A stretch of 60,697 nt of DNA from a bacterium (GCA_030648255.1 JAUSHZ010000012.1:1-60697), one strand, 5' to 3'; shown: positions 11,550 through 37,643, counted from the stretch's first letter. Notes: generated by a model from the sequence alone, not told the origin. Numbers and translations: made by a program.

Positions 11550-11550
11550 T

Positions 11551-11697: not shown

Positions 11698-11702
11698 CGC
11701 GA

Positions 11703-22800: not shown

Positions 22801-25800
22801 TTGGTTTCTGGAAATTCTATTCTGTCTGGCGGTTTGTGGACAAGCGGCACCTCTACATTGGCTACCACCTCTATTACATATTTGACTGCTTCTGTTGGGG
22901 GATCGGTTATGGGAAGGTTTGGTATTGGCACTACCACCCCATACTATTCGTTGGATATTCAAAGCACATCAGGTCTTGGCTCTTTCCGTATCGCCTCCTC
23001 ATCTGTGTATAATGCGCTATTAATAGACAACAACGGATTAATGACATTTGGTTTAGGCGACCATAGCTCTTCGTCTCTTGTTATACAAGAAGGCACAAGC
23101 GGTACTGCTTATTTAACTTTTGACACCAGCAATGACGCAGAAAAAATAGTGGTGGGCAAAAATTTAGAAATTGGGCCAATGAATGTGGATCAAGATAGCG
23201 GGGCGGTGTTGTTTGCCACTATGGATGTAACCGCAAGCTCCACAGCTGGAATTGCCAATAGCTTGAGTATTGGCATTGATGGCAATTCGATTTTAACTGT
23301 GTATTCCTCATCAACTGGAAATGGGCAGATAGAACAAATGCGGGTTGGTATTGGTACCACAACCCCAATCGCTATGTTGGAATTGAGGGGTAATGCCTCA
23401 ACCACAGGAGATTTATTTAGGGTCTCAACCAGCACAATTTATGGAATGGTTATTGACGGTATGGGGCTTGTTGGTATTGGCACCTCCTCACCAACATTTA
23501 ATTTAACAGTGGCTGGCACGCAATACACAACAGGAGCTGCATATTTGAGCAGCACTTTAAATGTTTCTGGCACATCAACATTGGCAACTACTTCAATTAC
23601 TTATTTAACTGTTTCACAAGATGCAACAATTGGTGGAAAGCTAGGCATTGGAACAACCACTCCATATACCACTTTTGATTTAAAAGGAACAGCTAGTATT
23701 GATCCGTTTAGGATTGCTTCGTCAACGGGAAATACCTTATTAAAACTTTCCAATACTGGAGCATTAAGCCTTTTACCAGCAGACGGAACAACTGTTGAAG
23801 GTATTTATATGTACCCTCAAACAAATGGAAATCCTGCAAAAATTGTCATAGGAAATTCTGGAACTTCTGTTGGAACTAATCCTGCCTTTGAAATACATAG
23901 AGTGGTAACTGGGGCTACCAATGCTCACGGAATACAGGATTATTCTGATTTGAATATGGACGCAGATATGGCTTATGCTTCCCACGACTCAAGAGTTAAT
24001 CTTATAGGTTCTAATGCTATTGATCATTTTGTTTCTTTTCAAGCTGTTCCAATAATAACAAATACAGGGATAGTAAGTAGTTTATATTCTTTATGGAGCG
24101 CTCCCGTTATAAGCGCAGGAACAACCACTAATAGCTATGGAATAAAATTAGATAACCCAGCGTTAAGTGGTTCTGCGGTTGTTACAAATAATTATGGATT
24201 ATATGTTTCAAGCCAAACAGCGGGTTCGGCTAACAATTATGCTGTTTATACAGCTGGAACGGCCGCCTCTCTTTTTGGAGGAAATGTAGGGATTGGGATA
24301 ACTCCAACTTATGCTTTGCATATCTCAAAAGCCAGTCCAAGAATTTATGTAAAAGATACTGGAACGAGCTATAGTATGGCCCAATTTTCCAACGGTTCAA
24401 CTGGGGATTTTTATATTGGAAAAGAAAGTAGCACTGGAGGTTCAATAATTACGGGTTCATATGGGAACGCTGGCGTTATAAATGTAAGTGGGGCATTTCC
24501 TTTTCAACTTGCAACCAATGGAACGATTAGGATGACAGTAGCAAGTAGCACAGGAAATGTAGGCATGGGCACAACCACCCCAGCCGCCTTGCTGGATATT
24601 TATGGCACAGCCGGGCCAGCTCAATTGAGAATATCCACTTCCACTGGCTGGGCGCAGTTTTATGTTGACAACAGTGGCTACTTAAATATTGAGACACAAA
24701 ATTCCACCACCTCGGCTTTGCAAATTACTAATGCCACTGTGGTTGCCAATCAGCCGTTAAACTTAAATATGGCCGGGGATTTGGGATTGTCTTATGACAT
24801 AATGCTTGAAAATCCATCAGCCAGTTATATTAAATTTGCTGGGGCTGGTTTCGTGCAAACCGAAAGCCCGTTTGGCAATTATAATTTAACATTGTCAGCT
24901 GCCAACACGGGTAAAATTGTTTTAAACGACAATATCCAAATAACAGGCACCACCCAATTTGTGGCAAGTTCAACCGTGCAGGCATTGGCAAGCTCATCAG
25001 CCATTATTCAGGAAGTTACTTTGACCAAAATCTACGCCAGTTCTTCTTTAATCCTTTCATCTGCCCCAACAATTGCTGATGGCGTGGAGGGCGATATAAT
25101 TGTTTTACTTGGCGCTTCAACCACGCAGGCAGTAACCGTGCAAGACCAAGACACATTGGCCTCAAGCAATTTACAGCTTGGTTCAACCAACAGAATGCTC
25201 ACCAACGGATCCACTTTGGCTTTGATGTTTGACGGCACTGATTGGGTGGAGCTTTGGTATTCGGGCATTACTCACGCTGACTTTGCTGAAATGTATAAAA
25301 TAAAAGAAGATGTGGAAATAGGAGATGTGGTGGCGTTTAGCGATGAGTACTTAAAAACCCGCAAAGCCAGTTTACCAGATCAAACTTTGGTGGGAATTAT
25401 TTCTGCCAGCCCTGCCTATTTAATTGGCAATGAATTTAAAAATGAAATGGTAATGCCAGTGGCTTTAAATGGCAGGGTGCCAGTGAAGATCTCGTTGGAG
25501 GCAGGGGCAATCCAAAAAGGGGACTTGTTGATTTTATCCACCAAGCCCGGCTACGCAATGAAATATAACGAAGATTATTTGAGAGAGCTCAAGGCACTCG
25601 GTTCCTTGAAAGAGCTAACCATAGTGCCAATTGTTGGTGTGGCGTTAGAGGATTATGTTACTTCATCAGAAAAAATCCAGCCAGAATTTTTGGAAATAGA
25701 ATACAAAAAAGTTGCTATTCAGTTTAAACAAGAAACTGACGAGGCAATTAAAAATACAATTTTAGCAAAATACAAAATAAACTCTAACAGCGAAGTCAGG

Positions 25801-26502
25801 GCAAGCTATATTGAAAATTTACAAACAGAAGAGCCAATCGCTTCTATTAATATAGTTGGCTCACGAGTTGAAAGAATTGCCAACCCAGATTATAGCCCCG
25901 CCAAAGACGACAAGATTATGGCAATGGTCAAGAGCGGTTATGTAAAAGTTGGACCATCAAACGGATTTTCAAAATTAACAGTGGTGGAAAAAGATGGCAA
26001 ATTGGTCTTTGCCCCAGAAGACAAAAATTTTGCTGATAATTTAGATATGGTTATTGAGGCAGACGGTTCTTTGGTGGTGGGTAAATTAAAAGCCAAGCAA
26101 GCAGAAATTGGCAGCGCAGAAAAACCAGCTGGCATTACTTTGTATGACGAAGACACTGGCGCTCCTTATTGTTTGAAAATGAAAGCTGGAGCAATGATAA
26201 GTCAAGCTGGCAAATGCGGAGAGCTTGGAGCCGAGCTACTTCCGAGCTCAGGAGGAAGTAGCTTGGCTCCTTCGGAGCCCGTCCCCGAGCCCGAGATAAG
26301 TCCCATAGATCCTATTAGTCCTATTGTCCCTCCCCCCATTCTCCCCGAACCAGTAATTTCTGAACCGCCAATAGCCCCAGCACCCGAATTTACACCCGAA
26401 GTAGCCCCCGAAACCCCACCAGTCGAGCAACCCGCGCCTGAGCCCGAAATAAGTCCTATTGGTCTTATAAGTCCTATAAATCAAAACCTATATGTCCTAT
26501 AA
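16822..26502 (+). CDS. Giant (3226 aa) membrane-anchored fibre-like surface protein with an N-terminal excisionase/MerR-type HTH
   Basis: This is a single uninterrupted ORF. The N-terminus reads ISLSDAAKYSEI...KLGRNWVTTKQWVDDYI, followed by a transmembrane segment (YIFKFALASSITAVLIFSVFIF). At least 14 G-[IV]-G-T-[TS]-[TS]-P repeats lie in a Thr/Ser/Gly-rich core, and the tail is Pro-rich. Confidence 0.85.
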   Translation: MSDSDLNYISLSDAAKYSEIYSQEYLSLRARQGKFKATKLGRNWVTTKQWVDDYIHLEKNVKANGVLHEEIKKENLEKFEKENLIFEKPVFEKPEIKIQPASAPSELRRGEARKYIFKFALASSITAVLIFSVFIFKDKIIKIDKTLDAKFISVTKNISENIKLPKENYFVGVNFLSKADLVFADLKDSFLKQNNLAVKSILNGIPKSNPQHYISKVNNYLAIEKQRIKFLTSEYKLFTQEVEKIKQEISNSDIFFAVKELKQSLGNGVVALYKTHPWSHSEGVERPKNPNENNGRDSSLSLRMTQLGLFITKADKTLDTKFLSLAKSVPTIKIPTIKIPTNSIKTAIAISQEITNKKIDQAFSNLKDSFLQQNDLAVSSVKNYFVGINILTKDYPVRARQQIVLVADGYQLSFIEINRVTVGFGERALQAINSYSAVADNYFSAISILVKSAGESAKEFARSFVGDIKTVVIKSQETTNEKAGLVFADLRNSFLQQNDLVALGVSGGFKNIGDGFVILREWSDRRILTAETEIPRLYLGMTESGHFVAQNLKDYLALAKEKINILANIASIASNVNIAESLKAIQRPVDDYFYGIFFVAKDYLALEKQNFISAIKDYKLSTVGTTKEIGKEILANALAATSNIKNNIKDSIQEGLAITKQKTKDLFANIKALTIYIVESAQKGFYYVIRPWLEDKNLFLVQGVKETEFLKTASSTVIIKETVVIREKQGSSVSTTQITQIFPIKEITKETIIVEKAVEARFWEPLKTELQQLKLAVANLQSQAGKIQYYSPSNNVPTSPVYIGSSGLEISGNASLASLGVSGFAGIRDLGVGNSFSVGSGGTTLTVDKEGRLTSPSITGGSGSFSSLSSTGNITATGDLAVSGSATIAGNLNVGGIAVFSTSTIAMTTTTASIFSIGTSTTANLFTVAGTGNTVFQNIGQVYILPTGTTTIGAGTSTPTVLTGYIASDILPYYDNTYNIGSSDYRWKQGYFGDSLSVNGTSTLATTTATLLSVSGNGMVAGYFGIGTSTPYYPLDISSTSTITSSSAKAQNIYLTANPSATSSASYYGSMSIADYQANYPTNSGYYVMGNWGEGRNSGTSTLENVVGGWFRAANTSSGTVNDANGVVGQARNSGTGTIIRGYGVVGAARNNSSGVITDAVGVWGDIINANASGVITNAYNIRAAVPYSNVGTIQNLYGVYIDAQSPTGGGTINNKWAFYQAGSSDQSYFAGNVGIGTTTPTALLNVYSSKATAYPLLRISTTTVEALFVDTSGNVGIGTTTIAYKFFVDGNSYISGNSTSTGNSQIAGNLQVVGSQTIGSTLNVAATSTQATTSITQLLVSGYGSVLGSFGVGTSSAPYKLTVEGDSYFIGNATTTGDFTVNGNLKVAGNTITLGDSFTSDLVVNTAVASDLIPDENATRDLGSTNYYWDYLYVDQVVANNISAASTTVGGTQSESFTLNSDNGTADTESQSLIFFRGQVVPNAVLSWDAGADKFDFNQPVFMQNDSSTTTVPSLEVWGKSGQTADLFRVASSSGAVVFNVASSGNVGIGTSTPSFLLTTAGTQYTTGATYFGSTLNVSATTTVATTSITQLLVSGNSILSGGLWVSGTSTLLGDVSITNNLLVSDDLTVTATTTLNGDVVLGSDSNDNIAINGRVGTTTFIGGITVGGDLVANLDFTASGTSTLATTSITQLTTSGHALFSGNVSIATSSSSFGLTTAGTQYTTGATYFGSTLNVAATSTLATTSITYLTASVGGSVMGRFGIGTTTPYYSLDIQSTSGLGSFRIASSSVYNALLIDNNGLMTFGLADNSSTSMTIQEGTSGTAYLTFDTSNDAEKIVVGKDLEIGTMRIDQDSGAVQIANMNITTSSTINTAESLSIALDGVSVLTVYGEADGVGYLQNYRVGIGTTTPISMLTIIGSASSSASSLLKIATSTITAMFIDGMGLVGIGTTSPSFTLTNAGTFYSTGASYFGSTLNIVATSTQATTSITQLLVSGNSILSGGLWTSGTSTLATTSITYLTASVGGSVMGRFGIGTTTPYYSLDIQSTSGLGSFRIASSSVYNALLIDNNGLMTFGLGDHSSSSLVIQEGTSGTAYLTFDTSNDAEKIVVGKNLEIGPMNVDQDSGAVLFATMDVTASSTAGIANSLSIGIDGNSILTVYSSSTGNGQIEQMRVGIGTTTPIAMLELRGNASTTGDLFRVSTSTIYGMVIDGMGLVGIGTSSPTFNLTVAGTQYTTGAAYLSSTLNVSGTSTLATTSITYLTVSQDATIGGKLGIGTTTPYTTFDLKGTASIDPFRIASSTGNTLLKLSNTGALSLLPADGTTVEGIYMYPQTNGNPAKIVIGNSGTSVGTNPAFEIHRVVTGATNAHGIQDYSDLNMDADMAYASHDSRVNLIGSNAIDHFVSFQAVPIITNTGIVSSLYSLWSAPVISAGTTTNSYGIKLDNPALSGSAVVTNNYGLYVSSQTAGSANNYAVYTAGTAASLFGGNVGIGITPTYALHISKASPRIYVKDTGTSYSMAQFSNGSTGDFYIGKESSTGGSIITGSYGNAGVINVSGAFPFQLATNGTIRMTVASSTGNVGMGTTTPAALLDIYGTAGPAQLRISTSTGWAQFYVDNSGYLNIETQNSTTSALQITNATVVANQPLNLNMAGDLGLSYDIMLENPSASYIKFAGAGFVQTESPFGNYNLTLSAANTGKIVLNDNIQITGTTQFVASSTVQALASSSAIIQEVTLTKIYASSSLILSSAPTIADGVEGDIIVLLGASTTQAVTVQDQDTLASSNLQLGSTNRMLTNGSTLALMFDGTDWVELWYSGITHADFAEMYKIKEDVEIGDVVAFSDEYLKTRKASLPDQTLVGIISASPAYLIGNEFKNEMVMPVALNGRVPVKISLEAGAIQKGDLLILSTKPGYAMKYNEDYLRELKALGSLKELTIVPIVGVALEDYVTSSEKIQPEFLEIEYKKVAIQFKQETDEAIKNTILAKYKINSNSEVRASYIENLQTEEPIASINIVGSRVERIANPDYSPAKDDKIMAMVKSGYVKVGPSNGFSKLTVVEKDGKLVFAPEDKNFADNLDMVIEADGSLVVGKLKAKQAEIGSAEKPAGITLYDEDTGAPYCLKMKAGAMISQAGKCGELGAELLPSSGGSSLAPSEPVPEPEISPIDPISPIVPPPILPEPVISEPPIAPAPEFTPEVAPETPPVEQPAPEPEISPIGLISPINQNLYVL
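17657..17737. repeat. Family-B palindrome in frame in the giant gene
   Basis: The sequence is gtcattctgagggagtggagcgaccgaagaatccc...gagattcttcgctatcgctcagaatgacac. Confidence 0.85.
18369..18447. repeat. Second family-B palindrome in frame in the giant gene
   Basis: The sequence is gtcattctgagggagtggagcgaccgaagaatcttgacggccgagaccgagattcctcggctctacctcggaatgac. Confidence 0.85.
19090..19138. repeat. Family-A long palindrome in frame in the giant gene
   Basis: The sequence gctgttgaagctcggttttgggagcccttaaaaaccgagcttcaacagc is read as AVEARFWEPLKTELQQ. Confidence 0.85.
22070..23170. repeat. Near-identical 810-bp (270-aa) tandem duplication inside the giant gene
   Basis: tctgttggcgg at 22081 recurs as tctgttggggg at 22891. 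The peptide LTASVGGSVMGRFGIGTTTPYYSLDIQSTSGLGSFRIASSSVYNALLIDNNGLMTFGL occurs twice verbatim. Confidence 0.85.
25590..25608. repeat. Family-D hairpin in frame in the giant gene
   Basis: The sequence is caaggcactcggttccttg, encoding KALGSL. Confidence 0.7.
26296..26331. repeat. 9-bp periodic ATAAGTCCY-type repeats at the giant gene 3' end
   Basis: The units ataagtccc atagatcct attagtcct attgtccct encode ISPIDPISPIVP. The same motif recurs through 26449-27100. Confidence 0.8.
26449..26468. repeat. Left arm of the inverted repeat around four-helix-bundle gene 1
   Basis: ataagtcctattggtcttat pairs with 27070-27089 over 20 bp, including one G-U. It lies inside the last codons of the giant gene. 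Confidence 0.7.
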
Positions 26503-27073: not shown

Positions 27074-27089
27074 GACCAATAGGACTTAT
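27070..27089. repeat. Right arm of the inverted repeat around four-helix-bundle gene 1
   Basis: The sequence is ataggaccaataggacttat, the reverse complement of 26449-26468 apart from one G-U position. Confidence 0.7.
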
Positions 27090-27102
27090 AAGACTTATAT
27101 TT

Positions 27103-27309: not shown

Positions 27310-29445
27310 ATGAAGAGATTTACAAAACAGTTTATATTTATTCTTGTAGCAGGTGTAATAATTACTGCAGGTGGTTTGATAATTAAAGCTGGAGTGGGAA
27401 ACATTAAAGTGAACCCTATACTTGGACATGATTTGGATTTGAATGCTTTGTATTATGGGCAGGCGGCGAATAATACGGTGCACGATATTACTACGCAGGA
27501 TATTAGTGTGAGTGCGTGGGTGAAGGTGGATGTGGATGCGGGGGCAACACAATTTATTGTATCAAAAGCAACTGGGACTGGGGGACAGGGCGGTTATATT
27601 TTATATCTCACCAGTAATAAAATAAGATTGTTTGCCACTGATAATGCTGATGTTTATACAATAACTGGCAATACGGCTATAAACGACAATAAATGGCATT
27701 ATGTTTCAGCGGTTATTGATAGAAGCGATGCTACGCAATGTAAAATATATTTAGATGGAGTTGAAGATGGAGCAACAGTAAAAAGCGGCACATTGGCAAG
27801 TATAGATTCTATAACAAGCACTCAAACATTTAAAATGGGAGTTGCTGGTGTTATCCTTGACGGGCAAATCCGTGATGTGAAATTGTATTATGCCGCAGGC
27901 GACCATTGGAGTGATAGCCAAGTGTTGTATCAAGCTCAGCATCCGTTTGATTATACTGCCAACGCTGGCACGCTTACGGATTACTGGCGTTTGGACGAGG
28001 GGAGTGGCACTACTCTGTATGGCAAGGTGAATAACTTAACTTTGAGCAATGTTTTGGCGTGGACAACCCAGCCCAAGATTAAAATGGTTAATCAGGAGAA
28101 TGCGACTACTACGGGGAATAATCCTGTGGGGTGGTGGAAAATGGATGAGGGGACAGCAAGCACAACTTATGATAGTTCTGGCAATGGCAACACTGGAACA
28201 TTGACTGGCGGAGTTCAGTGGGCTACTGGCAAGCTGGGTAAGGGGTTGAGCTTTGATGGGGTGAATGATTATGTGAGTGTTGGAACTTCAACGACTTTAA
28301 GACCAACTAAAATTACTGTCTCATTTTGGGGATATAGATATTCTCAAGCGTATGCGCCACTTGCCATTTCTGCTGGGGCGTTAGGAGGGAGTGGTGGGGG
28401 TGGCTATCATATTAGCTATTTAAACACATTTTACATATACAAAGCAGTTGGGGCTTCAGGTTTATGCACTGCTCCTGTGGGTGTTGATTATCTCAATCAA
28501 TGGGTGCATATTGTTGGAACTTATGATGGAGTAAATGTTAGAATTTATCAAAATGGTGTAGAAATTGGGACTGGAACATCTTGCGTTGGAAGTATAACAT
28601 ACAATCTTCCCGCTGGGACTACGATTGCTATTGGCAGTATGGGTTATTTAATGCCAAGTCAGGTATTCAAAGGTTCTATAGACGATGTCCGCATATACAA
28701 CAGGGCGTTGTCAGCCGGGGAGGTGGGGCAGATGTATAACTCTACCAAAGACGGATACTTGGGGAAGATAAAAATGAGCACGGGCTTGGTGGGGTATTGG
28801 AAGCTGGACGAGGCAAGTTGGAATGGCACGACTAACGAAGTGATTGATTATTCTGGGAAGTTAAATCACGGAACAAGCGTAAGTGGGGCAAACACTACCT
28901 CAACGGCTAAAATAGGCAGAGCAGGAAGTTTTAATGGCACAAATGATTATGTGAGCGTGGCAGACAGCGTTTCCATTTCGCCCACTTCCGCTATCACAAT
29001 TTCAATGTGGGCAAAGTTAGTTAGTAAATTACAAGCAGGGGGAGCTTCGCTTATAGCTAAAAATCCAACAGCGGATTCAACTAATTATGACTATATGCTT
29101 TATATAGGCAGTGATGGAAGCTCTATGAGTTTTTATTTTAAAAACAGTGCAGGTTCAGCAGATAATCTTCCAATTACTATGACTGTGTTTGATTCAAGCT
29201 GGCACCTCTACACTGCAACTTTTGACGGAGATATTATGAAATTGTATGTTGACGGGGTTGCCACTTCTTCTAAAGATACTACCCTAACAAACATAAGGGA
29301 CTCGGCTGGGTTGCTAACTTTTGGCAAGGGATATTCTACTAATAGGGTTAGGGGAGTTATTGATGATTTAAAGATTTGGAATTATGCGAGGAGCGGGGAG
29401 GACATCAAAAACGATTATGCCAAAGGCCTGGCAAGGTTGCAGTAG
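27310..29445 (+). CDS. Membrane-anchored multi-LamG (concanavalin-A-like lectin/glucanase, Laminin_G_3-type) protein, three modules
   Basis: The signal anchor is MKRFTKQFIFILVAGVIITAGG. Modules repeat the pattern W.LDEG.G....D.SG.GN.GT...FDG..DYV...DD[VL][RK]I[YW]N[RY]A. The start is set at ATG 27310. Confidence 0.8.
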   Translation: MKRFTKQFIFILVAGVIITAGGLIIKAGVGNIKVNPILGHDLDLNALYYGQAANNTVHDITTQDISVSAWVKVDVDAGATQFIVSKATGTGGQGGYILYLTSNKIRLFATDNADVYTITGNTAINDNKWHYVSAVIDRSDATQCKIYLDGVEDGATVKSGTLASIDSITSTQTFKMGVAGVILDGQIRDVKLYYAAGDHWSDSQVLYQAQHPFDYTANAGTLTDYWRLDEGSGTTLYGKVNNLTLSNVLAWTTQPKIKMVNQENATTTGNNPVGWWKMDEGTASTTYDSSGNGNTGTLTGGVQWATGKLGKGLSFDGVNDYVSVGTSTTLRPTKITVSFWGYRYSQAYAPLAISAGALGGSGGGGYHISYLNTFYIYKAVGASGLCTAPVGVDYLNQWVHIVGTYDGVNVRIYQNGVEIGTGTSCVGSITYNLPAGTTIAIGSMGYLMPSQVFKGSIDDVRIYNRALSAGEVGQMYNSTKDGYLGKIKMSTGLVGYWKLDEASWNGTTNEVIDYSGKLNHGTSVSGANTTSTAKIGRAGSFNGTNDYVSVADSVSISPTSAITISMWAKLVSKLQAGGASLIAKNPTADSTNYDYMLYIGSDGSSMSFYFKNSAGSADNLPITMTVFDSSWHLYTATFDGDIMKLYVDGVATSSKDTTLTNIRDSAGLLTFGKGYSTNRVRGVIDDLKIWNYARSGEDIKNDYAKGLARLQ

Positions 29446-29459
29446 GGCAAAGCATCATC

Positions 29460-29487
29460 TTGACAAAAAAGCATACTTTACTATAAT
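29460..29487 (+). promoter_or_regulatory. Consensus sigma70-type promoter for the AAA ATPase gene
   Basis: TTGACA lies at 29460-29465, followed by a 16-nt spacer and TATAAT at 29482-29487. It is 30 nt upstream of ATG 29518. Confidence 0.6.
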
Positions 29488-29517
29488 TAAACAGCAGTCA
29501 AACTTTAGTAATAAGCT

Positions 29518-30774
29518 ATGAAAGAACCATATATTACAAGGAAATTAGAAAATACCATTTTAAGGTATTTAAATACGCCCGAGATTATTGCGATTGTTGG
29601 GCCTCGTCAAAGTGGCAAAACTACTCTTTTAGAGAGGGTTTTTGAGCCATTGAAAAAACAAGCGGTTTTTTTAACTTTTGAGGATAAAAAAACACTTGAT
29701 TTGTTTGTTCATAATATTGATGAATTTATAGAGCTATACATTAAGCCCTATAAGTATGTTTTCCTTGACGAGTTTCAATATGCCAAAAAAGGTGGCAAGC
29801 TTTTGAAATACATTATTGATACTCAAAAGAGCAAGATTTTTATTTCTGGTTCTTCTAGTATTGAGTTAACGGTGCAGGCGGTGAAATATCTAACTGGCCG
29901 CATTTTTGTTTTTTCACTCTTTCCTTTAGATTTTGAAGAATACTTAAGATTTAAAAATCCAAATTTATTTACCTTATATTCAAAAAGAAAAATAGCATTA
30001 AGCGATTACGGCTTAAAGCCATTTTCTGCAATAAGTGAGAACATTGTTGAACAAATTCAAAATCATTATCAAGATTATGTGATTTATGGTGGCTATCCAA
30101 GAGTGGCTTTGGCTACTAATAGTGACGAGAAAAAAACTATTTTGCAAAATATTTATAACACATATTTTTTAAGGGAAGTAAAAGATATTTTGGGCTTGGT
30201 TGATGATTATAAACTAACGCAAATGATTAAGGCCTTGGCTTTGCAAATTGGCAGTTTAATTCAATATCGGGAAATTTCCGATGTTTCTGAATTAAGCTTT
30301 CAAACAGTGAAGGGTTATCTTAATTTTTTGCAAAAAACCTTTGTTGCTATTTTGGTTAAGCCATATTTCAAAAACAAAAGAACCGAAATTGTAAAAAATC
30401 CTAAGATTTATTTTTTTGATACTGGTTTGCGTAATTATATTGTTGATGATTTTCGCAAAATAGGGGATAGAACTGATAGCGGATTTTTATTAGAGAATTC
30501 CGTGGCTATGCAATTAACTAAGCAAGAAATATCTTTTAAGTTTTGGCGAACCAAGCAAAAATCAGAAGTTGATTTTGTGTTGGATTTAGGCGAAAGAAAA
30601 AAATTGGCTTTGGAAGTAAAAAAATCATTTAGGGATGGAGATTTTAACTCAAAATCAGCGAGAGATTTCAAAGCGCAACATCTGGAAGTGTCTTTATTTT
30701 TTGGCAGTTATGAGCAAAAAAGCGAAAAGCCAAAGCCAATATCGTTAAATGTGGTTTTTTTACCAATGATTTAG
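29518..30774 (+). CDS. AAA-type ATPase of the AAA_14/DUF4143 family
   Basis: The P-loop is IVGPRQSGKTTLL and Walker B is VFLDEFQY. The C-terminal region resembles a restriction-endonuclease-like fold (EVDFVL...LEVK). Confidence 0.7.
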   Translation: MKEPYITRKLENTILRYLNTPEIIAIVGPRQSGKTTLLERVFEPLKKQAVFLTFEDKKTLDLFVHNIDEFIELYIKPYKYVFLDEFQYAKKGGKLLKYIIDTQKSKIFISGSSSIELTVQAVKYLTGRIFVFSLFPLDFEEYLRFKNPNLFTLYSKRKIALSDYGLKPFSAISENIVEQIQNHYQDYVIYGGYPRVALATNSDEKKTILQNIYNTYFLREVKDILGLVDDYKLTQMIKALALQIGSLIQYREISDVSELSFQTVKGYLNFLQKTFVAILVKPYFKNKRTEIVKNPKIYFFDTGLRNYIVDDFRKIGDRTDSGFLLENSVAMQLTKQEISFKFWRTKQKSEVDFVLDLGERKKLALEVKKSFRDGDFNSKSARDFKAQHLEVSLFFGSYEQKSEKPKPISLNVVFLPMI

Positions 30775-30775
30775 C

Positions 30776-32908
30776 ATGAGCAAATTTTTAAAACAATTAT
30801 TATTTATTTCTCTCGGCATTGCCATTCTTGTGGCTGGAGGGCTTGTGATATATTCGGCTACGCCGTCGGGGAAACTGAAAATTAATCCGATTTTGGGGCA
30901 CGATTTGAATGCTAAGAATCTTTATGGGGCTTCGGGTGGGAATGTTTTGAATGTAACGACAGAAGATTTTTCGGTATCCGCTTGGGTAAATTTTCCTGTT
31001 GGGAATGTCCAAAGTCAAGTTATAATGCTAAAAACTCAGTCTTCTTATGCTTCAGGGGCTGGATATAAATTTTATTATACATCTACTAATTTATTGGATA
31101 TTCGCATAAATGACGGAACTGACGATTATCTTGTCTATTTTTCCGTTAACATCAATGACGGAAAATGGCATCATTTAGCCGCTACCATTGATAGAGACAA
31201 CGCCAACAATTGTCTTTTATATATTGACGGAGTAGTTAAAGCGGTTTCAAGAACTGGAACATTGGCAAATATTGACAGCATAACTAATACTGATAATTTT
31301 ACTGTTGCTAAAGATACTAATGGAAATGTGTATCTTAATGGTTCAATTAAGGATACAAAAATTTCTATTGGCACAGTTTGGACTGCGGCACAGATACTTT
31401 ATCAAGCCCAGCATCCGTTTGATTATACGGCTAATGCTGGCACGCTTACGGACTACTGGCGTTTGGACGAGGGGAGTGGCACTACTTTGTATGGCCTTGT
31501 GAATAACTTAACTTTGAGCAATGTTTTGGCTTGGACAACCCAGCCCAAGATTAAAATGGTTAATCAGGAGAATGCGACTACTACCAGTAATAATCCTGTG
31601 GGGTGGTGGAAGATGGATGAGGGGACAGCCAGCTCAAGTTATGACAGCTCTGGGAATGGGAATACGGGAACTTTGACAGGCGGGGTGCAATGGACTACTG
31701 GCAAGCTGGGCAAGGGGTTGAGTTTTGACGGGGTGAATGATTATGTGAGTGTGGGTGACCCTGCAAGTGGTGTTTTGGATTTCGGAATAAGTAATTTTAG
31801 TATTGGAACTTGGGTAAAGACAAGTTCTGTTCAAGCAATTAAAACAATTATATATAAAGGGGCAACAAGTGCTGCTAATAAAGGATATTGGATATATATA
31901 AATGCCACAGGAGTGGTTATTGCTAATATTGCTGATGGAACGAATAGACCTACAGCTGTTAGCACTTCTGGTTGGAATAATAACCAATGGCATTATGTGA
32001 TTGTTGTATTTAATAGGGCAGGTAATTCGCAAGTTTATATGGATGGTGTGGCAAACGGAACGCCTGCGAGTTTAGCTCCCATTGCAGGCAACACAATAGA
32101 CAATGCTTTTTCTTTTAGAATAGGCGGAACAAGTGGAGCTAATGCTTCGGCTGATGGGATTATAGACGATGTCCGCATATACAACAGGGCGTTGTCAGCC
32201 GGGGAGGTGGGGCAGATGTATAACTCTACCAAAGACGGATACTTGGGCAAGATAAAAGTAAGCACGGGCTTGGTGGGGTATTGGAAGCTGGACGATAACA
32301 ATACTTTGACTTCGGTGATTGACTACTCGGGCAAGGGCAACACAGGCACGGCTTATTCTGGCACTGCCACAAGCACTTCGGTGTTGTCCACCAGCACAGC
32401 GATGGTGGGGAGGGCGATGGGGTTTGATGGGGTGAATGATTGGGTGGGTAGCACTTATTCAAGTAATTTGAAATTAGGCAACAATGGAACGGTTTCTTTG
32501 TGGGTAAAACCAATCTCTTTGCCAAGCGGAACGCATATATTGGTTAGTTATGGAGGAAGTGGATACATCAGTGGGTATTTAGTAAGTCAAAATGGAAGTG
32601 ATTTGTATGTTTATTGGATAACAGCAGGGAGCAATATGTATGTTGCTTCTGTTTTGCAACTTAATACTTGGCAACATATAGCATTTACTAATAAAGATGG
32701 AGCTATGACTCTTTATTACAATGGCGTTAACATAAAAACGGGAAATTCGGGAGGAACTTTAACAGCCGATTGGTCTACATATATCGGTGGTGGATATTCT
32801 ACTTGGTATTTCAACGGGCTCATAGACGAGGTGAAGATTTGGAATTATGCGAGGAGCGCAGAGCAGATAGGGCAGGATTATGTGAGGGGGGTGAAAGGAT
32901 TACCTTAA
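30776..32908 (+). CDS. Membrane-anchored multi-LamG protein, paralog of 27310-29445
   Basis: It has the same anchor and module grammar. It shares about 360 nt and about 135 nt of near-identical DNA with the upstream paralog. Confidence 0.8.
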   Translation: MSKFLKQLLFISLGIAILVAGGLVIYSATPSGKLKINPILGHDLNAKNLYGASGGNVLNVTTEDFSVSAWVNFPVGNVQSQVIMLKTQSSYASGAGYKFYYTSTNLLDIRINDGTDDYLVYFSVNINDGKWHHLAATIDRDNANNCLLYIDGVVKAVSRTGTLANIDSITNTDNFTVAKDTNGNVYLNGSIKDTKISIGTVWTAAQILYQAQHPFDYTANAGTLTDYWRLDEGSGTTLYGLVNNLTLSNVLAWTTQPKIKMVNQENATTTSNNPVGWWKMDEGTASSSYDSSGNGNTGTLTGGVQWTTGKLGKGLSFDGVNDYVSVGDPASGVLDFGISNFSIGTWVKTSSVQAIKTIIYKGATSAANKGYWIYINATGVVIANIADGTNRPTAVSTSGWNNNQWHYVIVVFNRAGNSQVYMDGVANGTPASLAPIAGNTIDNAFSFRIGGTSGANASADGIIDDVRIYNRALSAGEVGQMYNSTKDGYLGKIKVSTGLVGYWKLDDNNTLTSVIDYSGKGNTGTAYSGTATSTSVLSTSTAMVGRAMGFDGVNDWVGSTYSSNLKLGNNGTVSLWVKPISLPSGTHILVSYGGSGYISGYLVSQNGSDLYVYWITAGSNMYVASVLQLNTWQHIAFTNKDGAMTLYYNGVNIKTGNSGGTLTADWSTYIGGGYSTWYFNGLIDEVKIWNYARSAEQIGQDYVRGVKGLP

Positions 32909-32913
32909 TAAGC

Positions 32914-32945
32914 AATCAATCACCAAACCAGAAATCCGAACAAAT
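32914..32945. repeat. Left arm of the inverted repeat around four-helix-bundle gene 2
   Basis: The sequence is aatcaatcaccaaaccagaaatccgaacaaat. The 28-nt core pairs with 33416-33443 with one mismatch. Confidence 0.85.
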
Positions 32946-32957
32946 TATCAAATTCCA

Positions 32958-33314
32958 ATGAACAATAACCAAAAATTTGACCTTGAAGAGAGAACTGCTA
33001 AATTTGGCGAGGATATTATAAAATTTTCCAGAAAGATAAAAAAGGATTCAACCACACTGCCACTTATTAGCCAATTAGTTAGGTCTGGGACAAGTGTTGG
33101 CGCTAACTATTTGGAAGCCGATGACGCGGAATCAAAAAAAGATTTTATCCATAAACTTAGTATTTCGCGTAAAGAGTCTAAAGAAGTAAAACACTGGTTG
33201 AGAATGATAGCCGTTGCCACCCCCGAATTAACAGAAGAAGCAAGAAAATTATGGAAAGAAGCTCAAGAATTAAATTTAATTTTTTCAGCAATTATACGCA
33301 AAAAGAAAGAATAA
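32958..33314 (+). CDS. Four-helix-bundle protein (23S rRNA IVS protein / Avd family)
   Basis: At 118 aa, it contains QLVRSGTSVGANYLEADDAESKKDFIHKLSISRKESKEVKHWLRM, which is diagnostic of the family. Confidence 0.8.
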   Translation: MNNNQKFDLEERTAKFGEDIIKFSRKIKKDSTTLPLISQLVRSGTSVGANYLEADDAESKKDFIHKLSISRKESKEVKHWLRMIAVATPELTEEARKLWKEAQELNLIFSAIIRKKKE

Positions 33315-33415
33315 GTAGCTATAAAATGACCAAACCAGAAATCAGAATACCCAAAAAATAACCAAGCCACAATACCCAATATCCAATTTCTAATTTTGGT
33401 TATTAGGATTTGGAT

Positions 33416-33449
33416 ATTTGTTCGGAATTCTGGTTTGGTGATTGGGATT
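33416..33449. repeat. Right arm of the inverted repeat around four-helix-bundle gene 2
   Basis: The sequence is atttgttcggaattctggtttggtgattgggatt. It ends 3 nt before ATG 33453 of the next LamG gene. Confidence 0.85.
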
Positions 33450-33452
33450 TAT

Positions 33453-36400
33453 ATGAAACAATTTACCAAACAACTTATATTTATCTCTCTGGGCGTTGCT
33501 ATTCTCGCAGTTGGCGGGGTTTTGATATTCGCGGTGGGGGATAAGGGGGCGGCGCCGGTGGCTCATTGGAAACTTAACGAGGGGAGCGGCAATTACGCTT
33601 ATGATTCCAGCGGCAACGCCAACACTGGCACCCTGTACTTGGGCGGCTCGGCCACCTCGTCCGCTTGGGTGAGCGGCGTTTATGGTGGCGCTATGAGTTT
33701 TGATGGCACGGATGATTATGCAGATGCGGGGAATGGGGCGAGTTTGCAAATTACAGGAAATTTAAGTGTTTCTGCTTGGATAAAAACGACCGATACTGCT
33801 GGTAGAATAATTGGGAAGTTTGAAGCCACAGATGAAAAAATAGCATATATTTTTAATATTTCTAGTGCCCCCTATTTAGGTGTTAGTGGCAACGGCACAT
33901 CTTTGGCATATCGAAATCTAAATGGCAATGCTTTAGACAACCAATGGCACCATATAGCTGGTGTCTATAATGCTACAGCTCAAACTATTTCTATGTATTT
34001 AGACGGTGTTTTATCACAAGGAACTTTGGGCGGAACTGTTCCAGCATCCATTTATAACAGTACAGGGAATGTTAAAATGGGCTATGATTATGGGGGTAAT
34101 GGTTATCTCAACGGAACTATAGACGATGTCCGCATATACAACTACGCGCGCACGGCGGATCAGGTGCGGGCGGATTACAACGATGGCAAAGCGTTATATG
34201 TGGGGGCGCGGGCGGCTGACTGCGATGTGTCGCCAGCAGATTGTGTGAACAAGGGCTTGGTGGGGTATTGGGATATGAGCCAGATGGGCGGGCAAACAGC
34301 CAGCGACAAAAGCGGCAATGGGAATAACGGCACTCTTGGCGCCTCCGCCTCAAAAGGCACAGACGACCCAACTTGGGCGCAAGGCATCCAGCCCTTTTCT
34401 GGTGGCCGGCCTGGCGGGGGAGGGTTGAGTTTTGATGGGGTGAATGATTATGTGGATGCGGGAAATAATATAGATGTTAGCTCAACGAACGCTATTACTA
34501 TTTCAGCTTGGGTTTATCCAAAAGCCAATACTGTAGCTGGAACTATTATCACCCAAAGAGACACTAATATTTTTGGACAATTTATTTTACGCCAAAGTTC
34601 AGCAGGGAATGGAAAAATAGAAATTTTCATTATAGATACCTCATCAAGACAAACTATCACTAATTTAGCCCCGACTTTGAACCAATGGACTCTTATTACA
34701 GCAGTTTGGGATAAAACTCAAAATAGCGGTAAGCCAAAAATATACTTTAATAGCGTGGAACAAACTTATAGCATACAAACTGCGGCTACGGGAGTATTAT
34801 CCACGAAACGAACTACAATAATGGGAATAAGAAGCTCAACGGAAGTCACAAACCTTTTCAACGGCCTCATAGACGATGTCCGCATATACAACAGGGCGTT
34901 GAGTGCGGCCGAAATTAGTTATCAATATAACCAAGCTAAGCCGATTGCGCAGTGGAAGTTTGACGAGGGGAGCGGCAATTATGCTTATGACAGCTCGGCT
35001 AATGCGAATACCGGCTCGCTGAATTTAGGCGGCTCGGCCACTTCGTCCGCCTGGGTAAGCGGAGCTTATGGCGGGGCTATGAGCTTTGACGGCACGGATG
35101 ATTATGTGGCTGTTAGCAACTCTATTTCAATGGCAACTGGCACCTTGAGCTTTTGGGCCAAGCCCAACACCACCACGCAAAAACTGGTTGAATTGTCGGC
35201 CAGCGATTATGTGTCTTTGGCCAGCGGGGTAGTTACTGTGGCTGGCTTTGGCACGGAAATTGTCTATGTTGACGGAAAACAAACAACAACATTTCCCGAC
35301 ACCAACTGGCATCATATTGAAATTGTGTCATCAGCCAGCATAACTGCTAACACAGTTAATTTAGGCAAAAATAGCGCGACTTATTATAATGGATTATTAG
35401 ATGATATAAGAATTTATAACTACGCGCATACTGCCGATCAGGTGCGAGCGGATTATAACAACGGCAAGGCGCTGTATGTTGGCGCGCGGGCGGCGGACTG
35501 CGATGTGTCGCCAGCGGATTGCGTCAACAAGGGCTTGGTGGGGTATTGGGATATGAGCCAGATGGGAGGGCAAACTGTGGCCGATAAAAGCGGGAATGCT
35601 AATACAGGGACCCTCGGCGCCTCCGCCGCAAGCGGCTCCGACGACCCAAGGTGGGCAAGCGGCATCCAGCCCTTTTCTGGTGGCCGGCCTGGCGGGGGAG
35701 CGTTGAGTTTTGACGGGGTGGATGACCTTGTTAGTTTTAGCAGTTTGACAGCGTATAACAGTAGCAGTTCACATAGTTATTCCGCTTGGATAAAACCAGG
35801 GGTTATGACAAGTTACAGGTGGATTATAAATAATGGAAGCGATACTCAAGGCACAAGTTTAATTCTTTATTCTGGCAAAATTGGGTTTTTTTATGCTGGC
35901 GGAAGAGCGGTTGATGTTGGCAACACTACTTTAATAGCTGGGCGGTGGTATCATATAGTCGCTGTGTATGATGGCAACGGAAATATCAACTTTTATTTAA
36001 ATGGGGCGGGAGATGGTGTTCAAACAACCGACGCAACCTATAGTTCATGGACCGCTACAAACTCTAATCCAAGATTGGGTAGTTGGACAGATGGAAGTTA
36101 CGATTTAGACGCTGTTTTAGACGACATCCGCATATACAACAGGGCGTTGAGTGCGGCCGAAATTAGTTATCAATATAACCAAGCTAAGCCGATTGCTTGG
36201 TGGAAAATGGACGAGGGCGCCGACACCGCCACCACCTGCAACGCCACGATTAGCAGTGTCTATGACTATTCGGGCAACGCTAACACTGGCACTTTGCAAA
36301 ACGCCAATGCCTCGCCCGCCACCTCGTCTATGTGGAGCGACGGTAAATACGGCTGCGCCCTCACCCTTGACGGCACGGATGATTATGTGGCTTTGGGAAC

Positions 36401-36869
36401 AGTTAAGTATAACAACATAGGCACAGGCGATTTTACTTTTTCGGCTTGGGTTAATCCTACATCATTTGATACAACAAATAATAATTACATCACAGACAAC
36501 GCAGGCACTAATCGGTGGATAATTGGTTCCACTAATGTTGCAGGAGCCATTAAAATATACTCATTAAACGCTGGCGCATGGACAACAGCTGCTCTTGCTA
36601 CAACAAGCGTTGGCGTTTGGTCGCACCTTGAAATAGCCCGAAGAAGCGGTGTGGTCTATGGATACTTAAATGGGGCTTATCAGGCATCCGCAAATTTTAA
36701 CTATAGTATCAGCCACACAGGCGTAAGCACTATAGGCAGCCATAATGCTGGCGCGGCGGCATTTTGGAGCGGGTCAATAGACGATGCGCGTATGTATAAC
36801 TACGCCCGCACCGCCGACCAAATCCGCGCCGACTACAACGGAGGGGCAGGGCTACATTTGGGGCAGTAA
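33453..36869 (+). CDS. Membrane-anchored five-module LamG protein
   Basis: The anchor is MKQFTKQLIFISLGVAILAVGG. Five D-D-[VIA]-R-[IM]-Y-N module ends are present. Modules 1/3 and 2/4 share long near-identical N-terminal parts. The start is set at ATG 33453 rather than the track's 33396. Confidence 0.8.
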   Translation: MKQFTKQLIFISLGVAILAVGGVLIFAVGDKGAAPVAHWKLNEGSGNYAYDSSGNANTGTLYLGGSATSSAWVSGVYGGAMSFDGTDDYADAGNGASLQITGNLSVSAWIKTTDTAGRIIGKFEATDEKIAYIFNISSAPYLGVSGNGTSLAYRNLNGNALDNQWHHIAGVYNATAQTISMYLDGVLSQGTLGGTVPASIYNSTGNVKMGYDYGGNGYLNGTIDDVRIYNYARTADQVRADYNDGKALYVGARAADCDVSPADCVNKGLVGYWDMSQMGGQTASDKSGNGNNGTLGASASKGTDDPTWAQGIQPFSGGRPGGGGLSFDGVNDYVDAGNNIDVSSTNAITISAWVYPKANTVAGTIITQRDTNIFGQFILRQSSAGNGKIEIFIIDTSSRQTITNLAPTLNQWTLITAVWDKTQNSGKPKIYFNSVEQTYSIQTAATGVLSTKRTTIMGIRSSTEVTNLFNGLIDDVRIYNRALSAAEISYQYNQAKPIAQWKFDEGSGNYAYDSSANANTGSLNLGGSATSSAWVSGAYGGAMSFDGTDDYVAVSNSISMATGTLSFWAKPNTTTQKLVELSASDYVSLASGVVTVAGFGTEIVYVDGKQTTTFPDTNWHHIEIVSSASITANTVNLGKNSATYYNGLLDDIRIYNYAHTADQVRADYNNGKALYVGARAADCDVSPADCVNKGLVGYWDMSQMGGQTVADKSGNANTGTLGASAASGSDDPRWASGIQPFSGGRPGGGALSFDGVDDLVSFSSLTAYNSSSSHSYSAWIKPGVMTSYRWIINNGSDTQGTSLILYSGKIGFFYAGGRAVDVGNTTLIAGRWYHIVAVYDGNGNINFYLNGAGDGVQTTDATYSSWTATNSNPRLGSWTDGSYDLDAVLDDIRIYNRALSAAEISYQYNQAKPIAWWKMDEGADTATTCNATISSVYDYSGNANTGTLQNANASPATSSMWSDGKYGCALTLDGTDDYVALGTVKYNNIGTGDFTFSAWVNPTSFDTTNNNYITDNAGTNRWIIGSTNVAGAIKIYSLNAGAWTTAALATTSVGVWSHLEIARRSGVVYGYLNGAYQASANFNYSISHTGVSTIGSHNAGAAAFWSGSIDDARMYNYARTADQIRADYNGGAGLHLGQ

Positions 36870-36876: not shown

Positions 36877-36912
36877 AATTTCTAATTAACCTAATTTCTA
36901 ATTTCTAAATAA
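36877..36912. repeat. Left arm of the inverted repeat around four-helix-bundle gene 3
   Basis: The sequence is aatttctaattaacctaatttctaatttctaaataa. It matches the reverse complement of 37321-37356 at 33 of 36 positions. Confidence 0.85.
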
Positions 36913-36927
36913 GCACCAATTAAAAAA

Positions 36928-37290
36928 ATGACCAATGAACAAAAAGAACCAAAGATATTTGATTTAGAAGAAAGAACTGCCAAGTTTGGTGAAGACATTA
37001 TTAGATTTTGCAGAGAATTACCTAAAGATGAAATTACTCGCCCAATAATCAATCAGTTAGTAAAATGTGGAACCAGTGTTGGAGCAAATTATTGCGAAGC
37101 AGATGACGCAGAATCACGCAAGGATTTTAAGCATAAAATTGGTATTTGCAAAAAGGAATCCAGAGAATCAAAGCACTTTTTGCGAATGTCAGCCATCGCC
37201 ATTCCAGACAAAAAAGATAGAGCCCGCAAGCTATGGGTAGAAGCCAAAGAAATTAACTTAATCTTTAATTCTATCTATCAAAAATTATAG
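36928..37290 (+). CDS. Four-helix-bundle protein (23S rRNA IVS protein / Avd family)
   Basis: At 120 aa, it contains QLVKCGTSVGANYCEADDAESRKDFKHKIGICKKESRESKHFLRM. It is a close paralog of 32958-33314. Confidence 0.8.
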   Translation: MTNEQKEPKIFDLEERTAKFGEDIIRFCRELPKDEITRPIINQLVKCGTSVGANYCEADDAESRKDFKHKIGICKKESRESKHFLRMSAIAIPDKKDRARKLWVEAKEINLIFNSIYQKL

Positions 37291-37320
37291 TTTTGTCCAT
37301 TGGGATTTAGTTATTAGACA

Positions 37321-37356
37321 TTATTTAGAAATTAGAAATTAGAGCAATTAGAAATT
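37321..37356. repeat. Right arm of the inverted repeat around four-helix-bundle gene 3
   Basis: The sequence is ttatttagaaattagaaattagagcaattagaaatt. Confidence 0.85.
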
Positions 37357-37373
37357 ATTATCTTTTATGGCTG

Positions 37374-37643
37374 TTGGGTTATGTGAATGGAAATATAACA
37401 ATTCATGGGTTAGGAGATTTTGAAAATTATCCTTGGTCAAGCTACGGTGCAATTTTCAAGGCACTGGGTGCCTTGAAAAACAAGGAACTGAGTGCCTTGT
37501 CGAACCTGTCGGTGTTGAGCGGGTTGGAAATTGTTTTGTCGCAGTTTGGTAGTGCGGAAGAGTTCCGCAATTTTGTTAAGCAAGTTGTTAAAGAGAGTAA
37601 GGAAAACAAAGCGATGAAAAAGTATTTGTTAGAGGATATTTAA
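37374..37643 (+). pseudogene. Probable 3' fragment of a RAYT/IS200-like Y1 transposase gene carrying family-D hairpins
   Basis: GYVNGNITIHGLGDFENYPWSSY resembles the YI..NP....L......Y.WSS motif. The tail SQFGSAEEFRNFVKQVV parallels EIFPTIDDYKKFIVSLI of the intact gene at 53009. There is no HUH region, and the track start is TTG. Confidence 0.45.

Follow-up and report, generated by a model that had tools for sequence, protein, structure and literature searches.

Conserved edges and divergent cores in three multi-LamG genes of a bacterial chromosomal segment: probable recombination between modules

In the mosaic tail-fibre and receptor-binding genes of phages (gp37/gp38 of the T-even phages, side tail fibres of the lambdoid ones), conserved segments alternate with unrelated receptor-binding segments. 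Antigenic variation based on gene conversion is represented by pilE/pilS of Neisseria, vlsE of Borrelia, msp2 of Anaplasma and MgPar of Mycoplasma genitalium, while the var/PfEMP1 genes of Plasmodium falciparum are multi-domain adhesin paralogues that recombine at conserved “homology blocks” and form mosaics. Polymorphic toxin loci (Rhs/CdiA) possess orphan C-terminal cassettes. Here, we analyse a 60,697-nucleotide stretch of bacterial DNA (GCA_030648255.1 JAUSHZ010000012.1:1-60697; this whole stretch is called the window, and positions are counted from its first letter), in which three genes, A, B and C, encode tandem LamG (Laminin_G_3) modules with constant edges and variable cores. We consider it likely that these genes have been shaped by homologous recombination or gene conversion at the conserved first and last strands of the modules, with replacement of the cores and lateral spread possibly via phages. 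Such a mechanism, recombination at conserved segments, is already known from the phage tail fibres and antigenic-variation genes; an instance in this family was not found described.

In bacteria of the candidate phyla radiation (CPR) and in DPANN archaea, LamG/concanavalin-A-like proteins are predicted to be secreted or anchored and have been proposed to serve for cell–cell attachment (PMC13059738, PMC9563170). Proteins A, B and C belong to the same domain family, and database matches give hundreds of multi-LamG proteins in Patescibacteria. In the literature on LamG proteins of CPR and DPANN, we found only mentions of them as candidate adhesins, and no description of a mosaic of constant flanks and variable cores or of phage-borne copies.

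The three genes are as follows:

27310..29445, + strand: LamG gene A, membrane anchor and three Laminin_G_3 modules, 711 amino acids (PF13385, E=6.6e-66)
30776..32908, + strand: LamG gene B, membrane anchor and three Laminin_G_3 modules, 710 amino acids (PF13385, E=5.3e-67)
33453..36869, + strand: LamG gene C, membrane anchor and five Laminin_G_3 modules (PF13385, E=3.5e-97)

PF13385 matches A with 221.5 bits (three stretches), B with 225.1 bits (three) and C with 323.1 bits (five), the cut-off being 27.6. All three genes are full length, each with its own start codon and N-terminal hydrophobic anchor. Gene A starts with the ATG at 27310 and not with the upstream TTG at 27205, in agreement with homologues that open with MKRFTKQ or MSKFLKQ; gene B begins 2 nucleotides past the stop codon of an ATPase gene. 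In gene C, internal alignment reveals that modules 1-2 and 3-4 represent a two-module tandem duplication with diverged cores. An exact-sequence database look-up of protein B returned no record. As a part of the explanation proposed above, and with the same likelihood, A, B and C would be paralogous membrane-anchored multi-LamG (concanavalin-A-like lectin) surface proteins.

Each module consists of a constant N-terminal part of ~50-95 amino acids ending with FDGxNDYV, a variable core of ~95-135 amino acids, and a constant strand and helix, IDDVRIYNRALSxxE. A previous sequence-only reading of this locus, made without database searches, had described the conserved blocks as linkers. Their conservation is real, but they are not free linkers: the conserved edges mostly correspond to the N-terminal strands of the LamG fold (W.LDEG...SGNGNTGTL...FDGxNDYV) and to its last strand and helix. 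An AlphaFold2 model of B based on an 8-sequence alignment displays three all-beta domains (beta-sandwiches), although its mean pLDDT (predicted local-distance difference test score) is only 61.6, with residues 215-298 below 50, which is too low for placing the variability on a binding face.

The conserved DNA blocks, for which none was expected by chance as regards the three repeat pairs already noticed in the LamG genes, are all direct repeats located on one strand:

27928..28283, + strand: block 1, copy in A, covering the module 1 end, the junction and the module 2 N-terminal strands up to FDGVNDYVSVG; partner 31400-31755
31400..31755, + strand: block 1, copy in B; partner 27928-28283
28677..28811, + strand: block 2, copy in A, covering the module 2 last strand and helix, the junction and the module 3 first strand, IDDVRIYNRALSAGEVGQMYNSTKDGYLGKIK.STGLVGYWKLD; partner 32161-32295
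32161..32295, + strand: block 2, copy in B; partner 28677-28811
34870..34969, + strand: block in C, module 2/3 junction; partner 36118-36217
36118..36217, + strand: block in C, module 4/5 junction; partner 34870-34969
34120..34447, + strand: block in C, module 1/2 junction; partner 35398-35725
35398..35725, + strand: block in C, module 3/4 junction; partner 34120-34447
33554..33720, + strand: N-flank of C module 1; partner 34940-35106
34940..35106, + strand: N-flank of C module 3; partner 33554-33720

The sequence-only reading had reported near-identity of 27931-28290 and 31396-31755 over about 360 nucleotides. This pair is real, but its register was wrong (267 of 360 positions mismatch as written): the true block 1 is aligned ungapped at an offset of 3472, with 33 mismatches in 356 nucleotides (90.7% identity, which falls short of near-identity); 26 of these affect third codon positions, and 14 are concentrated in 28158-28222. 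Block 2 does contain only 3 mismatches in 135 nucleotides, just as had been counted, with an exact run of 87 nucleotides. The reported difference of 2 in 78 positions between 34871-34948 and 36119-36196 of gene C was also reproduced, and here the similarity extends to 34870-34969 and 36118-36217 (92% over 100 nucleotides, exact run of 70 nucleotides, third-position identity 0.90). Two internal pairs of gene C are additions to that earlier list. The pair 34120-34447 and 35398-35725 is 83.8% identical over 328 nucleotides, with amino acid identity of 0.75-1.0; the pair 33554-33720 and 34940-35106 (81%, third-position identity 0.45-0.65) is, to judge from its nearly saturated third positions, an older block.

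Between these blocks lie the cores:

27415..27867, + strand: core A1, the less variable module-1 type; best 57-59% amino acid identity, to P0002, P0003 and P0004
28285..28677, + strand: core A2; 26% amino acid identity to B2
28963..29358, + strand: core A3; 30% amino acid identity to B3; best relative 41%, the first module of P0022
30887..31345, + strand: core B1; 44% amino acid identity to A1 and 28-44% to module-1 cores of seven related genes
31757..32161, + strand: core B2; 26% amino acid identity to A2; 41% to the L083/L090 core
32456..32821, + strand: core B3; 30% amino acid identity to A3 and 18-27% to third cores of six related genes
33732..34118, + strand: core C1; 38% amino acid identity to C3 and 48% to the terminal core of L087
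34464..34868, + strand: core C2; 29% amino acid identity to C4 despite flanks that are 83-90% identical
35118..35396, + strand: core C3, a short variant, of a type that metagenome gene L081 has in its terminal module
35742..36116, + strand: core C4; 29% amino acid identity to C2; best 33-38% among 118 homologues
36399..36776, + strand: core C5; 20-34% amino acid identity to other window cores; best 26-35% among homologues

(Here and below, L numbers denote related loci and genes, which come from metagenome assemblies throughout, and P numbers denote homologous proteins.) The cores cannot be aligned as DNA, as had been observed before, but they are not unrelated: all of them are Laminin_G_3 and are 20-44% identical as proteins. 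They differ in length, by insertions and deletions, and at all codon positions. The identities of positional counterparts (A1/B1 44%, A2/B2 26%, A3/B3 30%, C1/C3 38%, C2/C4 29%) mostly fall within the 20-35% background of any two modules, while the flanks reach 77-100%. The A1 module type occupies the second position in P0006 and P0022.

The edges of the cores are marked by two families of short conserved sequences:

28678..28719, + strand: 3' anchor of A2, IDDVRIYNRALSA; equivalents at 32162 (B2), 34119 (C1), 34869 (C2) and 36117 (C4)
28243..28285, + strand: 5' anchor of A2, GLSFDGVNDYVSVG; nine copies, the others at 28921, 31715, 32414, 33690, 34422, 35076, 35700 and 36357

The 3' anchors of A2, B2, C1, C2 and C4 have common exact runs of 23-57 nucleotides, and a 34-nucleotide pattern within them occurs 4 times at no more than 2 mismatches, as compared to 0 expected. 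The nine copies of the 5' anchor are 65-88% identical, with exact runs of 18-24 nucleotides among A2, B2 and C2. Exact runs of 18-57 nucleotides are about the length needed for RecA-type exchange, and the anchors are candidate substrates for homologous exchange.

Comparison of synonymous sites shows that the blocks are conserved as DNA. Where A and B have identical residues, the codon is also identical in 121 of 148 cases (0.82) within the blocks versus 76 of 179 (0.42) elsewhere (Fisher p=2e-13), and in an internal control, 28822-28920, the amino acid identity of 60-70% is accompanied by a third-position identity of only 0.15-0.2. Since the codons in the blocks are conserved beyond the rest of the same genes, protein constraint alone cannot account for the block identity. 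The blocks thus have a recent common origin as DNA, whereas the cores have reached saturation, which excludes both a recent whole-gene duplication, under which the cores would have to be as similar as the flanks (they are far less so), and pure purifying selection.

A similar relation is seen between genomes. Over their whole length, the closest proteins in the database reach only 35-51% identity, with flanks of 90-100% identity and unalignable cores. One of them, P0002, is encoded in the syntenic locus of GCA_964948515.1 (L001), where the gene order is FtsX, giant protein, LamG, LamG. For 11 housekeeping genes, this genome and the window are 68-84% identical in nucleotides and 57-91% in amino acids (LepA 88%), with an identical-codon fraction of 0.60 (1967/3273), as compared to 86-91%, 92-96% and 0.69-0.77 (p=0.07, 0.0016 and 0.0014) for the LamG flanks, so that the flank proteins are more conserved than LepA. 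All LamG cores differ between the two genomes (13-47% amino acid identity). Since all cores are different and the flanks are kept, core turnover is complete within the time in which the housekeeping proteins diverge by 10-25%. Metagenome contigs scanned for DNA encoding YNSTKDGYLG yielded 15 loci, several of them syntenic with the window. In one, L087, the identical-codon fraction is 0.75 for the flank and 0.49 for the adjacent giant gene (p=3e-5); in L084 and L079, the same flank peptide is encoded with saturated codons (0.36-0.58), which indicates that the codon choice in the flanks is not forced. A scan of genome contigs with the general motifs GWWK[MF]DE and KM[VA][NKR]Q[EQ]N[AT]T gave 75 CPR-wide loci with 25-42% identity and no close relatives.

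Nearest relatives change along the genes. The common type of N-terminus and module-1 C-flank is present in gene A (77-100% to L001/L091) and not in gene B (39-60%). For N-flank 3 and C-flank 3 the reverse holds, the common type being that of gene B (87-93% to L001g1/L082) and not that of gene A (46-64%). A and B are mutually closest only in linker 1b (94%), and the pairwise homoplasy index (PHI) test on 7 flank sequences gives p=0.002. Block 1 of B is 86.5% identical over 377 nucleotides to L001, and the likeness of block 2 of B to relatives in other genomes runs on to ~32450 (91.5% over 283 nucleotides for L001, 92.4% over 289 nucleotides for L082). The suggestion of the sequence-only reading that recombination or gene conversion operates at the conserved edges is thereby strengthened: synonymous conservation and incongruent neighbours are joined by alternative module arrangements, which do exist in public metagenome assemblies. 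Incongruence along the gene, cores less alike than the flanks, and alternative arrangements are each the opposite of what that reading had named as refuting it.

For example, near-identical metagenome genes part abruptly at the FDGxDDYV motif: L083 and L090 are 98.1% identical over 1447 nucleotides and have no similarity from FDGVDDY on, and L080 and L081 are 97.1% identical over 583 nucleotides and then unrelated. The identity breakpoints of both pairs, and of A/B, are all located at the 5' anchor motif. The cores also occur behind different flanks. The terminal core of L083 recurs with 99% amino acid identity in P0066 and with 94.6% nucleotide identity in L085, where linker 2 follows it instead of the gene end. 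The C3-type core (C3 and the terminal core of L081 are 70% identical over 91 amino acids by BLAST and 72.9% over 291 nucleotides) sits in L081 behind a different N-flank type, the alignment revealing a conserved core and unrelated N-flanks; the C1 and L077 core types are found in other positions as well. The junction KIKMVNQENATT..NNPVGWWK.DEG attaches LamG modules to three upstream parts: the anchor alone, the module-1 type, and a weak FGE-sulfatase-like domain.

Two side observations concern module arrangement. In L083, L090 and L078, the place of module 1 is taken by a domain ending with ..GFRCV, which connects with the LamG modules via the same KIKMVNQENAT junction and has a weak FGE-sulfatase (C-type-lectin-fold) match of 21.9 bits, below the cut-off of 23.3. 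In other CPR lineages (P0067, P0078, P0109, P0018 and P0030), cores of 94-100% identity are found in different combinations and positions, for example, P0018 residues 789-942 and P0030 residues 312-465 (94%); from these multi-LamG proteins, module reassortment appears to be general in the family.

The most conserved segment is linker 1a (27973-28080 and 31445-31552), with 92-100% amino acid identity across genomes. It is limited to a narrow protein set (18 representatives at E<=1e-10), within which it occupies widely differing positions. It includes the vestigial start of a module, WRLDEGSGTTLYGKVNNLTLSNVLAWTT, which no core follows and for which the AlphaFold2 model gives a pLDDT of 23-43; it may have been left behind by a lost module, or may be a strand by which module 1 is completed.

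The same gene type is carried by two phage contigs from IMG/VR, L093 (IMGVR_UViG_3300009168_000078; this contig is also L091) and L094 (IMGVR_UViG_3300027743_000097):

L093, 12910-14949, - strand: membrane-anchored LamG gene with 3 modules and the same flanks as the window genes
L094, ~12277 to the locus end: membrane-anchored LamG gene with 3 modules, preceded by a giant-protein homologue

In L094, genes for terminase, SU10-type portal, major head protein and HylP-like tail fibre are followed by the giant-protein homologue (10853-12268, 472 amino acids, E=1e-24) and then by the LamG gene, so the pair of giant-protein homologue and LamG gene is common to phage and chromosome. In L093, the LamG gene is followed by genes for a peptidase, an SU10 adaptor, structural and tail-fibre proteins, lysozyme, and replication. 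Linker 1 of L094 is 92.2% identical to block 1 of gene B over 348 nucleotides, which exceeds the identity between A and B, and the L093 and L094 copies are 94.9% identical over 936 nucleotides, differing in a short tract in the module 2 N-flank. The phage-borne genes make phages a plausible vehicle for sharing of flanks between genomes. The phage copies accompany structural genes but sit at contig ends, whereas the window copies lie between housekeeping genes; L093 probably ends past its LamG gene, as extension of the locus gave the same loci again. The LamG matches among GenBank phages were all distant (26-33%), and the proteins concerned, from cyanophages and Streptomyces phages, carry virion-structural or hypothetical annotations.

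The window as a whole is a chromosomal segment with ~38% G+C, harbouring housekeeping genes (PGK, MurJ, LepA, RF, FtsEX, FtsZ, enolase and GAPDH) and three tRNA genes. Its LepA is 71-72% identical to that of named Pacebacteria metagenome-assembled genomes and 85-87% identical to that of other relatives, and from its sequence affinities, the source organism is identified as a tiny, uncultured bacterium of the Patescibacteria (CPR) near Ca. Pacebacteria. The neighbours of the LamG genes include the following:

16822..26502, + strand: gene for a giant repetitive membrane protein of 3226 amino acids, directly 5' of the LamG cluster
29518..30774, + strand: AAA_14/DUF4143 ATPase gene (Pfam), inserted between A and B, with its stop codon 2 nucleotides before B
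32958..33314, + strand: four-helix-bundle gene between B and C, with 49-nucleotide inverted repeats 32917-32965 / 33396-33444
36928..37290, + strand: four-helix-bundle gene 3' of C, with 51-nucleotide inverted repeats 36877-36927 / 37306-37356

The giant protein has an N-terminal membrane segment and long internal repeats, matched no Pfam family, and is encoded syntenically upstream of the LamG genes in L001, L084, L087 and L088. The ATPase gene is not present at the syntenic site of L001; in L083 and L089, LamG genes have homologues of it as neighbours. In front of it, at 29460-29487, lies a perfect TTGACA-16-TATAAT, the sole notable site in a promoter and terminator scan of the window, the counts of which equalled the shuffled expectation.

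Three four-helix-bundle genes (23S_rRNA_IVP/TIGR02436 family) surround the LamG genes (26492-27073, 32958-33314 and 36928-37290). Those adjacent to LamG genes all lie between AT-rich inverted repeats, both in the window (26449-27099, 32917-33444 and 36877-37356) and in L077, L081 and L086; the repeats are 49-51 nucleotides long with 80-84% identity in the window and 57-83 nucleotides long in the three metagenome loci. This layout is similar to that of an rRNA intervening sequence (stem, with the open reading frame (ORF) in the loop), yet it is located in intergenic DNA. A further gene, 52121-52957, encodes a type IV pilin-like N-terminal methylation motif and one Laminin_G_3 domain; its identity to A, B and C is only 24-31%, and their flanks are missing from it. 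A Y1_Tnp (IS200-like) gene, 53009-53761, follows this gene, and a truncated Y1_Tnp homologue, 37368-37643, is located after gene C. Homologues of Y1_Tnp directly adjoin LamG genes in five metagenome loci (L078, L080, L083, L084 and L090). A REP-like (repetitive extragenic palindromic) sequence, CAAGGCACNNNGTGCCTTG, has 9 copies versus 0.01 expected, at 13823, 25590, 37457, 37481, 37649, 40277, 40306, 49823 and 49852; three of these surround the truncated Y1 ORF, and others overlap annotated ORFs, lying inside the giant and GAPDH genes or at the 5' ends of those for RF and FtsZ.

Most likely, homologous recombination or gene conversion, both among paralogues and between genomes, keeps the constant parts of the modules alike as DNA, and the cores are old, strongly diverged variants of LamG, each exchanged whole between breakpoints at the two anchors. 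The exact runs in the anchors may serve as a substrate of general RecA-type recombination. Unequal exchange between anchors would alter the module number, which would explain the two-module duplication in C, and deletion between the 87-nucleotide direct repeats is predicted to give an A5'-B3' hybrid. Phages with the same gene type may carry segments between lineages, and the cores presumably determine ligand specificity (probably towards a glycan or host surface) under diversifying selection.

Several points weigh against this explanation or limit it. The incongruence of A and B around linker 2 rests on the assumption that the contig is joined correctly across the 87-nucleotide exact repeat, and contigs L077, L086, L088 and L094 end inside flanks, so that some of the alternative arrangements could be assembly chimeras. 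The synonymous excess between genomes is modest (0.69-0.77 vs 0.60), and local codon bias or selection on mRNA or DNA could partly produce it. A near-identical donor for A2, A3, B2 and B3 was not found in a search with nine concatenated cores, the best match being ~43%, although this is a weak negative because gene C, the source of 5 of the 9 query cores, was not itself recovered. The domain family and an N-terminal hydrophobic helix are the only basis for predicting ligand binding and surface exposure. The variants are known between assemblies only, and the picture that these sequences suggest is one of mosaicism on the evolutionary scale, not of ongoing exchange or programmed switching.

In an alternative explanation of the antigenic-variation type, one or a few expressed LamG loci would receive cores at high frequency from silent donors by gene conversion between anchors. 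Near-exact 5' and 3' anchor DNA brackets all cores (variable segments bracketed by conserved DNA common to the copies being a feature of cassette systems), metagenomes hold near-identical genes with different terminal cores, and the conservation of flank DNA exceeds the protein need. Still, a tblastn search with A, B and C revealed no truncated or promoterless LamG copies in the 60.7-kb window, the only other match being the complete pilin-LamG gene; a start codon and a membrane anchor are present in each of A, B and C; the window yielded no dedicated recombinase, and the weak concatenated-core search no donor for its cores. The dedicated cassette-type diversification system put forward in the sequence-only reading is thus not demonstrated, since silent cassettes, recombinase and reverse transcriptase are absent from the window and all three genes are full length, and we consider it unlikely. 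Less probable still is the possibility that there was no recombination and that only strong purifying selection at the protein level kept the edges of ancient paralogues alike, their cores being left to drift. It would agree with the flank peptides being family-wide LamG motifs (92-100% amino acid identity, above LepA), but it is contradicted by the synonymous identity of 0.82 in blocks vs 0.42 elsewhere in the same genes, by the saturated codons of L084 and L079 for the same peptide, by the incongruent nearest neighbours with a significant PHI test, and by abrupt breaks in genes that are 97-98% identical.

An equally small chance is given to an artefact in which short-read assemblers mis-joined paralogues at common flanks and so made apparent mosaics. 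Exact repeats of up to 87 nucleotides and the many related contigs ending inside flanks speak for it. However, the flanks are alike and the cores unlike whichever core is paired with whichever flank, and mis-joins cannot produce such a pattern; it recurs in many independent assemblies, including a 143-kb NCBI genome contig, and the A/B direct repeats lie in one linear contig, for which the sole alternative resolution is a deletion. The PF05635/TIGR02436 four-helix-bundle genes flanking the LamG genes, a Pfam family that also includes the accessory protein Avd of diversity-generating retroelements (DGR), would point to targeted hypermutation of the cores by such an element or a similar one. We regard its probability as negligible: Pfam scans of window ORFs of at least ~115 amino acids gave no reverse transcriptase (the RVT_3 match at 6731-7255 belongs to an RNase H-like protein), a template/variable repeat pair is missing, the block mismatches are distributed over all base types, and the cores differ by insertions and deletions, in length and at all codon positions. 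With no adenine bias and no reverse transcriptase in the window, DGR is excluded despite the Avd-family neighbours. Shufflon- or invertase-type switching was also considered and rejected: the LamG repeats are all direct, and no site-specific recombinase was found in the window, only the Y1_Tnp-like gene 53009-53761 and the remnant 37368-37643.

Most CPR/Patescibacteria remain uncultured, and a life attached to other cells is assumed for them. Since the binding cores turn over completely while housekeeping proteins change by only 10-25%, an anchored lectin-like family of this kind could determine partner specificity. The phage-borne copies suggest that phages and their hosts trade LamG modules, and the constant flanks are conserved enough to provide handles for polymerase chain reaction (PCR) or capture when sampling core diversity in communities. 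One may go beyond recombination at module edges and imagine that these edges are the anchors of a combinatorial adhesin repertoire held jointly by Patescibacteria and their phages. Phage LamG genes, each preceded by a giant-protein homologue, would then bring new cores into the chromosomal giant-protein/LamG cluster; the new cores would change the partner to which the episymbiont attaches, or the one able to attach to it; the flank DNA would exceed housekeeping conservation through selection for recombination competence; and the Y1-transposase-like, four-helix-bundle (Avd-family) and DUF4143 ATPase genes, which recur between LamG genes, might take part. Taken together, these proposals are speculative and rather doubtful, though the significance of the locus would be greater if a module pool shared by phage and host proved functional.

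Among the known systems, polymorphic toxins are similar to the LamG genes in that, at a short conserved motif, conserved sequence gives way abruptly to unrelated sequence, and in the replacement of the variable part as a unit. In the LamG genes, however, this part is a lectin-like core within a repeated module and not a C-terminal toxin accompanied by an immunity gene; orphan cassettes were not observed for them. In the LamG genes, as in var/PfEMP1, short highly conserved blocks alternate with hypervariable stretches, while the var genes are eukaryotic, belong to another domain family and have mutually exclusive expression, a feature not known for the LamG genes. The antigenic-variation genes share with the LamG genes the variable cassettes bracketed by conserved DNA that is a substrate of recombination, as well as surface-protein products (predicted for LamG). 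In contrast to them, the LamG window has neither a silent donor array nor an asymmetry of expressed and silent copies, and the exchange would involve whole domain cores of ~130 amino acids from an old, open pool.

The window genes differ from phage tail fibres in being chromosomal, located between housekeeping genes, membrane-anchored, and composed of tandem LamG modules; the LamG copies of phage contigs L093 and L094 are membrane-anchored too. The likeness to the tail fibres consists in the abrupt switches from near-identical to unrelated sequence among the LamG relatives, in the presence of relatives, at contig ends, on two phage contigs with structural genes, and in the probable exchange by homologous recombination at short conserved sequences, across genomes.

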